A stretch of DNA of 24,000 nucleotides from Nanobdellota archaeon (GTDB lineage Archaea; Nanobdellota; Nanobdellia; Woesearchaeales; UBA9642), in assembly GCA_021813435.1 (NCBI GenBank), contig JAKAKR010000013.1:67494-91493 (forward strand), given 5' to 3'. Below are positions 7,837-13,599 of the stretch, in pieces. Within the stretch, counting starts at the first letter, position 1, and every line of letters starts with the position of its first letter. Under the pieces are notes generated by a model that saw only the letters and a program-made list of their open reading frames with translations, was not told the origin of the DNA and ran no database searches. Position numbers and translations under genes: made by a program.

Positions 7837-7869
7837 CAGTCCTGATTCTGTAAGCATAGGTTCGTCCAT

Positions 7870-7996
7870 GCCGGGGTGGCACAACCTGGTACTGCGCCAG
7901 ATTGCTAAGCACTATGCGTGCTTTTAGATTGCTGCGCATTACACACAAAGATCTGGTGTCCGAAAGGATTTGTGGGTTCAAATCCCACCCTCGGCG
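7870..7996 (+). tRNA. tRNA-Ser (anticodon GCU) with an intron of about 43 nt at the canonical 37/38 position
   Basis: Folded by hand. Acceptor GCCGGGG/CCTCGGC (one G-U), discriminator G. Anticodon stem CCAGA/TCTGG, loop TTGCTA[intron]A with GCT at 7904-7906. Long class-II variable arm TGTCCGAAAGGATTT. T arm GTGGG-TTCAAAT-CCCAC. Confidence 0.85.
7908..7950 (+). other. tRNA-Ser intron (boundaries +/-1-2 nt)
   Basis: The insertion AGCACTATGCGTGCTTTTAGATTGCTGCGCATTACACACAAAG sits between anticodon-loop position 37 and A38. It contains the hairpin AAGCAC-TATGC-GTGCTT. Confidence 0.7.
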
Positions 7997-8023
7997 TACC
8001 TTCCTAAGGGTAGAAAGCCACTA

Positions 8024-9688: not shown

Positions 9689-10330
9689 ATGGGCATGGAT
9701 GACGAATGGAAACAGGTCTATGAAGACAAGGCATTGCGCGATATCCCGGATCATGAGCGTGGTGCATGGTCCCGTGAGGGATTTGCAGAACTGCTCAAGA
9801 TAACGCAGGATCTGGTCCTGCAATTGCATGGCATCACAACCATCATTGATGTCGGCTGCGGTGTCGGCGCATACTGTAGGGCGCTCCATGACAAAGGATA
9901 TCATGTTGAGGGTGTCGATTATTCTGAGCGCATGATTGCGCGCGCAAAAGAGAGAAACCCCGGCATGACGTTCAATGTCGGCAACGGATATAACCTCGCG
10001 TATGCTGACCAGGCATTTGATCTTGCAATATCGATTGGCGCATTGCAATGCTTATATAATCATGAGCAATTTCTCCGGGAACTTGCACGAGTCGCAAGAA
10101 AGGCAATCATCATCTCAACGCATGTGAGAACACAGGAAGTGTATAATCCCAAGGCAATTCTTGCCGCAGAACTTGCAGAGGATCCCTGGCCAGTGCGCGA
10201 ATATAATGAAAGCGAAATCATCCCGATTCTTGAATCCGCAGGATTTGAAACGACCATCATCCACGAGTATGAAGGAAAGAAAATCACTGACGGATGTTTT
10301 GTCGTCGCAAAGCGGAAAGCTTTTAAATGA
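9689..10330 (+). CDS. Class I SAM-dependent methyltransferase
   Basis: Motif I is IIDVGCGVGAYCRAL, followed by GVDYSERMIARAK and FDLAISIGALQCL (Methyltransf_11/25-like). The start at ATG 9689 is supported by the TATA spacing; 9695 is an alternative. Confidence 0.85.
   Translation: MGMDDEWKQVYEDKALRDIPDHERGAWSREGFAELLKITQDLVLQLHGITTIIDVGCGVGAYCRALHDKGYHVEGVDYSERMIARAKERNPGMTFNVGNGYNLAYADQAFDLAISIGALQCLYNHEQFLRELARVARKAIIISTHVRTQEVYNPKAILAAELAEDPWPVREYNESEIIPILESAGFETTIIHEYEGKKITDGCFVVAKRKAFK
10321..10328 (+). promoter_or_regulatory. TATA box of tRNA-iMet, overlapping the methyltransferase stop codon
   Basis: ttttaaat lies 24-31 nt upstream of tRNA position 1 (10352). Confidence 0.55.
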
Positions 10331-10351
10331 CTGATTGCTCCTTACCGCCAT

Positions 10352-10447
10352 AGCGGGGTAGAGCAGTCAGGAGTGCTCGCAGGGCTCATAACCCTGAGGT
10401 CGCTAGAGGTAAGAAATTACCGGCGAATTCAAATCTAGCCCCCGCTA
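10352..10447 (+). tRNA. Initiator tRNA-Met (CAU) with a 21-nt non-canonical intron in the T arm
   Basis: Acceptor AGCGGGG/CCCCGCT with A1:U72, discriminator A. D arm GAGC-AGTCAGGAGT-GCTC. Anticodon stem CAGGG/CCCTG, with the three G:C pairs typical of initiators, and loop CTCATAA. Variable loop AGGTC. T stem GCTAG ... CTAGC with T loop TTCAAAT. A 21-nt insert separates T-stem position 53 from T54. Confidence 0.85.
10407..10427 (+). other. Non-canonical tRNA intron (about position 53/54; boundaries ambiguous by 1-2 nt)
   Basis: AGGTAAGAAATTACCGGCGAA contains the hairpin GGTAA-GAAA-TTACC. Removing it restores a 75-nt cloverleaf. Confidence 0.7.
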
Positions 10448-10462
10448 TTTTTTCTATTTTTT
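10448..10462 (+). terminator. Double oligo-T terminator after tRNA-iMet
   Basis: ttttttctatttttt follows directly after the discriminator base. Confidence 0.6.
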
Positions 10463-10493
10463 CAGTTCGTTTCATGATTTGTTTCTAGTCATT

Positions 10494-11279
10494 ATGAAAC
10501 AAATCACTCTGCTCACTGGACATTTAGGCGAAAGGCATATCTATAGATGCTGTCTTCTTAAGACAATGCAACGGGATGTATCTGAAAATGATAGAATAAG
10601 AGGTATAAAACTTCCTAAAGAAATTTCTAAAGACTTAGCATATCTCTGCGGGATATTTGCTGGAGATGGAAGCCTTGGATATCGACGAAAAAAGAATGAA
10701 TATTGCCTTAAAGTTGTGGGAAATCCTAAAGACGAGAAAGAATTTTATCATCAAGTTATTGGACCGAAATTCGAGAAAGTGTTCGGAATACTTCCGAGAA
10801 TGAAATACCATGATTCAAAAACAACTTATGGATTTAGTATCTACTCGAAATCTATATATCTATATTTAGTAAATGTTACTGGCTTGCCTTCAGGAGTCAA
10901 ATACCATTCTCTAAAAGTCCCAGATATATTTCTTGATGATAAAAAATTAACAATGGCATTTATTAGAGGAGTATTTGACACAGACGGATGTATATCTTTC
11001 AAGAAAAGGTATCGGACTGAACCCTATTATCCAACAATTAGCGTTTGTTCAAAAAGCAGAAAATTTATAGATGAAATCGCGGATATATTAAAAACTACGC
11101 AGTTAATATTCTCTGGACCATATACATATATGCAAAAAGATATGCGTATTACGCAAGGACATACTACAACGAGCCGCATCTATATTTACGGTCACAAAAA
11201 TCTTCAGATATGGATAGATACAATTGATTTTTATAGTCCTAAACATTTGGCAAAAATACAGAAATACGCAAAATTGTAA
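10494..11279 (+). CDS. Free-standing double-motif LAGLIDADG homing-endonuclease-family protein
   Basis: Two LAGLIDADG motifs: LAYLCGIFAGDGSLG and MAFIRGVFDTDGCISF. The gene is AT-rich compared with its neighbours. The start is uncertain: ATG 10494, or ATG 10566 (MQRDVSEN), which has atctatag about 20-28 nt upstream. Confidence 0.8.
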   Translation: MKQITLLTGHLGERHIYRCCLLKTMQRDVSENDRIRGIKLPKEISKDLAYLCGIFAGDGSLGYRRKKNEYCLKVVGNPKDEKEFYHQVIGPKFEKVFGILPRMKYHDSKTTYGFSIYSKSIYLYLVNVTGLPSGVKYHSLKVPDIFLDDKKLTMAFIRGVFDTDGCISFKKRYRTEPYYPTISVCSKSRKFIDEIADILKTTQLIFSGPYTYMQKDMRITQGHTTTSRIYIYGHKNLQIWIDTIDFYSPKHLAKIQKYAKL

Positions 11280-11280
11280 A

Positions 11281-11568
11281 CTATCCTTTCCCTTCTTTCA
11301 GCTGTTTGACCACTTTTTCGAATGCAGCGATCTGATTCATGGTCAATGATTTATTTTTGAGATACGCTGCCTTGATGTTTCTTAAGAACACACTCTCTTT
11401 ATAGTATTCCTCGGGGATGTCGAATAATGATTTGTACGCGGGATCAGTGATCTCTTCATTCAGCGCTCCTTTCTGGCATTCATAACAGTAGACGTATCTT
11501 TGCGATCCATACGCCATGACATAATTCTTCTTGCATCGTGCACATTTTTGCTTGAATGGGACTGCCAT
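11281..11568 (-). CDS. Small zinc-ribbon protein (CxxC...CxxC), function unknown
   Basis: MAVPFKQKCARCKKNYVMAYGSQRYVYCYECQKG is followed by a helical, charged C-terminal half. The ATG at 11568 lies 21-30 nt from a TATA box. Confidence 0.6.
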   Translation of the reverse strand: MAVPFKQKCARCKKNYVMAYGSQRYVYCYECQKGALNEEITDPAYKSLFDIPEEYYKESVFLRNIKAAYLKNKSLTMNQIAAFEKVVKQLKEGKG

Positions 11569-11588
11569 GATGATCACAACAGGCACTT

Positions 11589-12613: not shown

Positions 12614-12633
12614 TCGGTTTGTTTTGCGGAATC

Positions 12634-13599
12634 ATGCGTAAACTTGCAAAATTTTCATCCAAAGTATTTCTTGCGCCCATGGCAGGCATCACTGACCCTG
12701 CATTCCGATTGCTCTGCAAAGAGGAAGGTGCGGGGCTTGTTACGACTGAACTTACCAGCATCCACGCCATTGTTGCAAAGGAAAAGCAGTTATCACAGGA
12801 AAACAAGGCAATCACGCAATTTGTCGAATATTCTGAAAAGGAGCGTCCTATCGCAATCCAACTGTTTGGCAATGATATTGATCTTGCAGTCCGCGCCGCA
12901 AAGATTGTTGAACCCTATTTTGACATTATTGATTTTAATATGGGCTGTCCTGCGCCGCATATCACCCAGCAGGAAGCAGGCGCTGCACTTTTGCAGAAAC
13001 CTGTACATGTAAAAGAATTATTTGCACGGCTTGTAACATCCATCGATAAACCCGTCACCCTTAAAGTCCGTGCAGGGATAAAGAGCGATAATCCGCATCT
13101 CTACCGCGATATTGCAAAAATTGCAGAGGATTGCGGAATCGCGATGATTACACTACATGCAAGAACGCTTGAGCAGGGATATTCAGGAACTGCAGACTGG
13201 AAACTTATTGCGGATTTGAAATCCCGGGTCACTATCCCGGTTGTCGGCAATGGCGATATCAAGACTCCTGAGGATGCAAAGCGCATGATGGATGAGACAG
13301 GCTGTGATTATGTGATGATTGGACGGGCTGCGATGGGCAACCCGCAAATATTTTTGCAATGCAATGAGTACATTACCTCTGGGAGATATACGCAGATAAC
13401 AGTGCAGGATAAGGTCAAATCATTTTTGCAGTATCTTGCGTATGCAAGAGATTATGCCATAAGCCCTGCAGCAATCAAGGTGCAGGCAATGCAATTCACT
13501 AAAGGCATTCCCGGCGCGCCGGACTTGCGAAGAAAGATTAGCGCATGCAGGAGTGGAGAAGAGTTCAGAGAACTATTTACACATCATGATGATGTATAA
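12634..13599 (+). CDS. tRNA-dihydrouridine synthase (Dus family)
   Basis: LAPMAGITDPAFRLLCKEEGAGLVTTE...IAIQLFGND...IIDFNMGCPAP (catalytic Cys)...ITLHARTLEQGYSGTADW...IPVVGNGDI...VMIGRAAMGNPQIF. Confidence 0.9.
   Translation: MRKLAKFSSKVFLAPMAGITDPAFRLLCKEEGAGLVTTELTSIHAIVAKEKQLSQENKAITQFVEYSEKERPIAIQLFGNDIDLAVRAAKIVEPYFDIIDFNMGCPAPHITQQEAGAALLQKPVHVKELFARLVTSIDKPVTLKVRAGIKSDNPHLYRDIAKIAEDCGIAMITLHARTLEQGYSGTADWKLIADLKSRVTIPVVGNGDIKTPEDAKRMMDETGCDYVMIGRAAMGNPQIFLQCNEYITSGRYTQITVQDKVKSFLQYLAYARDYAISPAAIKVQAMQFTKGIPGAPDLRRKISACRSGEEFRELFTHHDDV

Follow-up and report, generated by a model that had tools for sequence, protein, structure and literature searches.

Introns at non-canonical positions of archaeal tRNA genes, which are removed at a motif termed bulge-helix-bulge (BHB), were reportedly described from Thermoproteales and Nanoarchaeota by Marck and Grosjean in 2003 and by Sugahara in 2008, and Randau and Soll are said to have hypothesized in 2008 that disruption of tRNA genes protects against integrating elements. 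An integrase-based model for Caldiarchaeum ties tRNA-gene disruption to integrating elements as well (Sugahara 2012, PMC3293823), and a review of such non-canonical introns describes their mode of spread as unknown (PMC4090602). In phages, collaborative homing has been described for F-CphI, a free-standing endonuclease gene adjacent to the intron-containing psbA of cyanophage S-PM2, and for T4 mobE with the nrdB intron (PMC6083498, PMC2790892). Here we analysed a stretch of 24,000 nucleotides (nt) from a Nanobdellota archaeon (contig JAKAKR010000013.1, positions 67,494 to 91,493; the window), in which an initiator methionine tRNA gene (iMet) interrupted by a BHB intron is followed by a free-standing LAGLIDADG homing endonuclease gene (HEG). 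Across genomes, this HEG family is tied to one tRNA gene, iMet, and is associated with interruption of that gene within Sprinzl positions 41-54.

A sequence-only reading of the window had proposed that the initiator folds only after removal of 21 nt between position 53 and T54, that this non-canonical intron site leaves the sole initiator gene dependent on splicing, and that a double oligo-T tract is followed, about 45 nt on, by an AT-rich, free-standing gene with two LAGLIDADG motifs; each of these points held up. The tRNA gene as read from the sequence occupies 10352-10447 (+ strand, 96 nt). Exon 1 (10352-10406, + strand, Sprinzl 1-53) contains the acceptor 5' strand, the D-arm, the anticodon arm (CAT), the variable loop AGGTC and the T-stem 5' strand GCTAG, and exon 2 (10428-10447, + strand, Sprinzl 54-73) contains the T-loop TTCAAAT, the T-stem and acceptor 3' strands and the discriminator A, with CCA not encoded. 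Between them lies the 21-nt insert (10407-10427, + strand), with the hairpin GGTAA-GAAA-TTACC. Removal of exactly these 21 nt restores the cloverleaf of a 75-nt archaeal initiator, which scores 110.8 against a profile built from 30 intron-less archaeal iMet genes. The identity features of an archaeal initiator tRNA are all present (anticodon CAU, A1:U72, and the three G:C pairs G29-G31:C39-C41), and 10352-10447 is such a gene. The intron boundaries are unique because a shift of one base breaks G53/T54. Genomes of the same genus (G003, G006, G008, G012, G010 and G001) carry intron-less iMet genes whose first 50 nt show 96-98% identity and in which the T-stem passes directly into TTCAAAT; the 21 nt missing from these close orthologues are therefore an insertion in the iMet gene of the present genome (G000). 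Position 53/54 is already listed as a non-canonical tRNA intron site (PMC4090602), so the intron by itself is of a known kind.

The source assembly (1.41 Mb, 16 contigs, 96% complete) contains no second iMet gene detectable by BLAST with the exons and the spliced form. The only other credible CAT tRNA in the genome lies on contig C7, and with its G1:C72 pair and canonical intron it is an elongator, not an initiator. A "tRNA-Met" called by ARAGORN on contig C10 was considered as a second initiator and rejected for its poor fold. At the locus itself ARAGORN calls tRNA-Met but mis-models the 21-nt insert as a long variable arm, and the exon and intron boundaries were not taken from that call. The Rfam tRNA model gave no match in 10200-10600 because the intron breaks the model; the sole Rfam match there, SNORD51 on the minus strand over a hairpin at the endonuclease start codon, was dismissed as chance.

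The insert is a BHB intron and is predicted to be spliceable, as it combines a 3-4-3 motif, covariation among relatives and restoration of the cloverleaf on removal with the presence of the splicing endonuclease EndA in the genome. The 4-base-pair (bp) helix pairs C48-G49-C50-U51 (CGCU) with GGCG (intron nt 16-19) and lies between a 5' bulge, A52-G53/A, and a 3' bulge, A-A/U54, where the slash marks the predicted cut; from this layout both predicted cuts fall 2 nt 3' of the helix. The inner helix of the intron, GGUAA/UUACC, has 5 bp and a GAAA loop. The minimum-free-energy fold of the pre-tRNA contains the BHB instead of the T-arm (z = -2.9; local fold z = -3.6), with the outer helix beyond the 3' bulge weak or absent. 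EndA itself (204 amino acids (aa), contig C10:143034-143648, PF02778 and PF01974) was detected in one copy, and no second EndA subunit was detected in the genome even at E = 10. This single alpha-type enzyme is either broader than expected or has a divergent partner that escaped detection.

Mapping of the exons onto about 160 loci with a profile aligner allowing free long gaps identified 29 distinct introns of 21-35 nt at the same 53/54 site, in this genome and 28 others. An inner helix of 5-9 bp is kept in the same register in 27 of the 29, with differing helix sequences; the two introns that show no inner helix were mis-registered by the exon mapper. All four pairs of the BHB helix are present in 21 of the 29 and three pairs in six, and the helix covaries (CGCU/GGCG, CGGU/GCCG, CAGU/GCUG, CAUU/GAUG, CGAU/GUCG). 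Both ends are constant, with A as the first base in 26 of the 27 introns that were mapped correctly and AA (TA in one intron) as the final two bases. Many of them are homologous, with a common core AGCAG...GGAAGG...CTGCT and up to 92% identity between GTDB families; the G000 intron differs in sequence from this common type. Apparent "introns" of 600-2400 nt in L132, L141, L066 and L067 were mapper artefacts, L132 having a normal 3' end and the others short introns at 4/5.

The tRNA gene is followed by the tract T6-CTA-T6 (10448-10463, + strand), which is read directly and is likely the archaeal terminator for the tRNA transcript. The endonuclease frame spans 10479-11279 on the same strand; its ATG at 10494, 46 nt past the tRNA end, gives a protein of 261 aa (10494-11279), and the called start gives one of 237 aa (10566-11279). 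LAGLIDADG motif 1 (10635-10676, + strand) contains GDG with the catalytic D58 at 10665-10667, and motif 2 (10953-10994, + strand) contains DTDG with the catalytic D164 at 10983-10985. The protein matches Pfam LAGLIDADG_3 (PF14528, E = 7e-11), and 204 homologues were found. Across 34 aligned family members, which have a mean column identity of 52%, G57-D58-G59 and D162-T163-D164 are invariant, including both catalytic Asp residues. An AlphaFold2 model has a predicted local distance difference test score (pLDDT) of 86.9 and a predicted template modelling score of 0.85, with pLDDT below 50 in the first 17 residues only. The top Foldseek matches to this model were the endonuclease domain of the TliVMA intein and I-DmoI (E ~1e-8 to 1e-7; target-normalised template modelling (TM) score for I-DmoI 0.68-0.73), with bI3 also among the fold matches, and the best sequence matches in the PDB were the rRNA-intron enzymes I-Tsp061I (2dch) and I-DmoI. 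By motif and modelled fold, the predicted product is an intact single-chain LAGLIDADG protein of the I-DmoI type that has the pseudo-symmetric alpha-beta-beta-alpha-beta-beta-alpha double-domain fold and, with both catalytic Asp residues invariant and I-DmoI as the nearest fold, it looks active. The gene has a G+C content of 33%, against 41.5-48.6% in neighbouring genes and 43% for the window.

We examined the linkage of HEG and interrupted iMet from both sides. Starting from the HEG, a scan of GTDB species representatives gave 59 loci, 42 of which were in other species with at least 40% identity and a usable flank. The homologue abuts the iMet 3' end in 41 of these 42, at a distance of 1-112 nt and in either orientation, mostly convergent and on the same strand in a minority that includes G000, G002 and G004. 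The adjacent iMet is interrupted in 40 of the 41 cases, in some by up to five introns, and in 38 of the 41 an intron falls inside Sprinzl 41-54, either at 53/54 or at 43/44. The link to a tRNA that the sequence-only reading had noted at one locus thus extends to relatives, none of which has the family at a locus unlinked to a tRNA. The iMet genes of L135, L137, L121, L133 and L130, all HEG-adjacent, carry four or five short introns; one example is interrupted at linear positions 7/8, 21/22, 31/32, 39/40 and 46/47, an extreme fragmentation of a single-copy essential tRNA.

Starting from the tRNA, we took every iMet found in 41 relatives and added an order-wide search of 301 genomes, from which all partial matches among the matches listed were used together with 20 full-length matches as controls; a HEG at the iMet 3' flank was scored with the family hidden Markov model. 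In this sample, limited in the same way to the matches listed, a HEG was present at the 3' flank in 10 of the 15 iMet genes that have a 53/54 intron, in 1 of the 19 that have other introns only and in none of the 37 without an intron. One further 53/54 iMet at a contig edge was left out of this scoring, and one intron-less iMet has a weak 24-bit LAGLIDADG match upstream. The association between HEG and 53/54 intron has a Fisher p of ~2e-7 to 4e-7 when related genomes are treated as independent. Insert and HEG thus vary in presence at orthologous loci and are statistically tied. The state with both occurs in 8 GTDB families, two of which (f1 and f84) also contain intron-less iMet genes, and a further family (f47) contains intron-less iMet and an orphan 53/54 intron. 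The HEG distribution is patchy, with stop-interrupted copies in related clades, which fit the homing-endonuclease life cycle.

Five iMet genes (G014, G140, G269, G178 and G007) have a 53/54 intron and no HEG. No convincing HEG remnant was found downstream of them, the weak matches being mostly to the translated tRNA itself. In G140 (L041:2232-2534), a convergent open reading frame (ORF) of 492 aa stops 24 nt short of the tRNA, and the C-terminal ~100 residues of its product weakly match the C-terminal half of the LAGLIDADG family (27% identity, E = 0.003). This tail may be a fused HEG remnant or may be due to chance.

The best reading of these results, which we hold with slightly more confidence than doubt, is collaborative homing, in which a free-standing HEG targets iMet while the intron interrupts the target and travels along. 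Two of the features by which collaborative homing is recognised, adjacency of the endonuclease gene (41/42) and its co-occurrence with the intron (40/41; 10/15 against 0/37 among the matches listed), are found here. The locus would then be a selfish cassette, with a free-standing I-DmoI-type HEG lodged in the iMet 3' flank, and the low G+C content (33% against 43%), the patchy distribution and the stop-interrupted copies argue for a selfish element. In an iMet gene without interruption, the enzyme would recognise and cut about 20 bp of highly conserved variable-loop/T-arm DNA (around AGGTCG...GGTTCAAATCC), and repair from the HEG-bearing allele would copy both the HEG and the adjoining 3' portion of the tRNA gene. 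Lying about 40-90 bp from the HEG, the BHB intron would split the recognition site and make the carrier genome immune, and its cost to the cell would be low because the resident EndA and a ligase would take it out of the pre-tRNA. Intron and HEG would spread and persist jointly by co-conversion into cut alleles, and later loss of the HEG would leave orphan 53/54 introns such as the five above. We infer cleavage, target, immunity and transfer from sequence.

A number of observations weigh against collaborative homing. Three HEG-adjacent iMet genes have no intron in positions 41-54 (L111, which has no intron at all, G002/L102 and L159), and in G002 the HEG is 76% identical, yet the iMet is uninterrupted in that region. 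The 53/54 intron of the five HEG-less genes evidently persists alone. Related genomes are not independent, so the Fisher p overstates the association. The HEGs of G000, G002 and G004 group as a single clade inside one genus, which agrees with vertical descent no less than with homing, and the homology of 53/54 introns across families could reflect old vertical inheritance. Finally, a sister HEG clade (L150-L157) lies 25-50 nt 5' of an intron-less tRNA-His(GTG), so that an intron is no general requirement for tRNA-linked LAGLIDADG genes.

We looked for clues to the putative target in the tRNA sequences and in the HEG phylogeny. AGGTC (44-48) is invariant in 31 distinct uninterrupted HEG-free iMet genes, and G49 is present in 29 of the 31. 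Two of the three HEG-adjacent exceptions have substitutions in the AGGTCG core, G45A in L111 and G49A in G002; these are two cases only and are suggestive of a variable-loop/T-arm target. Sister HEGs that are well supported in the protein tree differ in the intron class of their tRNA, 53/54 versus 43/44, which is expected if either intron position breaks one target and which shows fast intron turnover. A correspondence of one HEG clade to one intron site was rejected, the tree being unsorted by intron class. In L128 and L134, HEGs of the family on contigs labelled Aenigmatarchaeota, Pacearchaeota and Iainarchaeum are nested among those of Woesearchaeota, with the same arrangement; if the labels of these metagenome-assembled genomes are right, such nesting hints at transfer between DPANN lineages.

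For the origin of the pair, the sequence-only reading had offered three possibilities, of which tRNA-targeted insertion of a selfish endonuclease gene is strongly supported: the homologues abut iMet (41/42), in both orientations, and the gene is AT-rich and patchily distributed. Its second possibility, a mobile-intron remnant whose ORF was once inside the intron, did not survive the comparison of loci. Such a history, in which a BHB intron bore the ORF, as in the I-DmoI rRNA introns, and the ORF later moved to the flank, would agree with the closest solved relatives being the rRNA-intron-encoded I-Tsp061I and I-DmoI, but the ORF lies outside the tRNA in all of the ~50 loci and is often antisense to it, which is incompatible with a former intron ORF, and we regard this origin as highly improbable. 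The third, a domesticated endonuclease, also lost ground. LAGLIDADG maturases exist, and a maturase-like helper that folds or splices the pre-tRNA, or a regulator of the iMet locus, would be consistent with the strong conservation of the family (mean column identity 52%), its link to iMet in many families and the presence of bI3 among the fold matches. Pure maturases often lose the catalytic Asp residues; here both are invariant, identical 53/54 introns occur without the gene in the five HEG-less genes, the orientation of the HEG varies, and the gene is AT-rich and patchily distributed, which together make domestication improbable.

It is also conceivable that the HEG and the introns have little to do with each other, the HEG using the iMet 3' flank as a conserved safe harbour and the introns being unrelated passengers of an intron-rich lineage, so that their co-occurrence is a lineage effect. 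Introns are indeed common in this genome (27 of the 47 ARAGORN tRNA calls), iMet can carry introns at many sites in the absence of a HEG, orphan 53/54 introns exist, and HEG clades sit beside intron-less tRNA-His. We nevertheless consider a mere lineage effect unlikely, since within the same order, and even the same families, the HEG is found at none of the 37 intron-less iMet genes among the matches listed while 40 of the 41 HEG-adjacent iMet genes are interrupted, and since the enrichment near the HEG is specific to positions 41-54, with a HEG at only 1 of the 19 genes with other introns among the matches listed. Alternatively, repeated cutting of iMet by the resident enzyme could select for insertions at the cut site that survive only if they fold into a BHB, so that the HEG would create introns de novo. 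The switches of intron class between sister HEGs, the HEG-adjacent iMet genes with 3-5 introns and the dissimilarity of the G000 intron to the common type would all be accommodated by such scars. Most 53/54 introns are homologous across families, with identities of up to 92%, which favours inheritance or transfer, and we give de novo creation only a small chance. Collaborative homing therefore remains the reading that we prefer. A broader proposal is more tentative and, in our view, has slightly less than an even chance of being correct: free-standing tRNA-targeting LAGLIDADG endonucleases may be a major force behind the non-canonical BHB introns in tRNA genes of DPANN archaea, the 53/54 and 43/44 introns of iMet being kept for breaking the site and spread by co-conversion with the HEG.

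The surroundings of the locus allow a comparison of filled and empty sites. A small Cys-rich (zinc-ribbon-like) gene (11281-11586, - strand), a conserved neighbour of iMet in the genus, forms the right-hand boundary of the cassette, and the tRNA dihydrouridine synthase gene Dus follows at 12619-13599 (+ strand). In G007, G011 and G012, Dus comes directly after iMet, which marks the ancestral "empty" arrangement. Synteny within the genus is only partly conserved: iMet is followed by a HAD-like gene in G003 and G001 and by a gap of ~650 nt in G008. For this reason G000 itself has no exactly definable empty site, and the pair G007/G009 was used instead. These two genomes of the same genus share the same two-intron iMet (88% identity), and ~750 bp with a LAGLIDADG gene in G009 replaces the 68-nt spacer between tRNA and Dus of G007, a difference that counts in favour of mobility.

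A perfect 11-bp hairpin (10475-10506, + strand; arms 10475-10485 and 10496-10506) overlaps the start of the HEG, its 3' arm beginning at the G of ATG 10494. G002 and G009 have equivalent start-codon hairpins (12 bp), and G004 has one that differs in sequence. The hairpin may act as a translational brake on the endonuclease, or as an RNA or DNA element of the cassette. In the LAGLIDADG gene of G009 (L069:2634-3355), compared with window positions 10448-10530, the leader, the hairpin and the first ~12 codons (MKQIT.LTGH.G) are near-identical to those of the G000 subclade, and the rest of the protein is only ~25% identical. It looks as if the endonuclease body had been swapped behind a conserved 5' module.

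More distant LAGLIDADG clades (L026-L039) abut tRNA-Lys, Ile, Tyr, Leu, Trp, Ser and Val genes, and these neighbours are often intron-bearing, which looks like one endonuclease clade per tRNA. The iMet genes of L066 (2495-2600), L067 (2555-2653) and L141 have a short acceptor-stem intron at 4/5. Two of these genes, those of L066 and L067, have a weak LAGLIDADG-like ORF (E ~1e-5 to 1e-6) immediately 5' on the same strand, so that the intron is again on the HEG-facing side of the tRNA. This suggests a second endonuclease family acting from the iMet 5' flank. Elsewhere in the window, tRNA-Ser(GCT) at 7869-7997 has a 43-nt intron, and odd ARAGORN calls in the genome (a 4-base anticodon, "tRNA-Stop") probably hide further non-canonical introns.

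The locus touches the question of how archaeal tRNA genes gain non-canonical introns and why some lineages accumulate them. Together with the ~50 related loci it offers a clonable candidate, in which a single endonuclease family goes with a single tRNA target and with two favoured intron sites next to the gene. If collaborative homing is correct, it would extend from the group I introns of phages to protein-spliced introns of cellular genomes and would provide a homing pathway for archaeal protein-spliced introns without an intron-encoded ORF, answering how tRNA introns "transpose". The idea of Randau and Soll that introns protect tRNA genes would become a testable case, and the enzymes would add new members to the long-target nucleases, their target being defined and universally conserved. 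In full-text literature searches we found no description of free-standing LAGLIDADG genes linked to archaeal tRNA BHB introns.

Compared with the known systems, the arrangement is closest in logic to collaborative homing in phages. In both, an ORF-less intron resides in a conserved gene with a free-standing endonuclease gene adjoining, and the intron site is the presumed target, so that intron-bearing alleles would be immune and intron and HEG would move jointly. The phage introns are self-splicing group I introns and their endonucleases are of the HNH or EndoVII-like type, whereas the present locus has an archaeal BHB intron of the protein-spliced kind, located in a chromosomal tRNA gene of a cellular organism, and an enzyme of the LAGLIDADG type whose cleavage activity is predicted from its sequence. 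I-DmoI, I-Tsp061I and I-PorI resemble the present enzyme in being archaeal, associated with BHB introns and folded as a single chain of two domains (TM ~0.7) with one acidic residue per motif. Their ORFs lie inside introns of rRNA genes, in contrast to the free-standing, tRNA-tied gene outside a 21-nt intron described here, and sequence identity is below 25%. With the non-canonical introns of Thermoproteales and Nanoarchaeota, the present intron shares the listed 53/54 site, the 3-4-3 motif, the short length and the frequent occurrence of several introns per gene; those introns are not known to have an associated endonuclease gene, whereas here the sole initiator gene is interrupted and tied to a HEG. 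Finally, as in the proposals of Randau and Soll and of Sugahara in 2012, the intron would protect a conserved tRNA gene from a mobile element that targets that gene. Those proposals concern integrase-type viruses and plasmids with their att sites, whereas the element proposed here is a homing endonuclease, which would itself gain from the intron.

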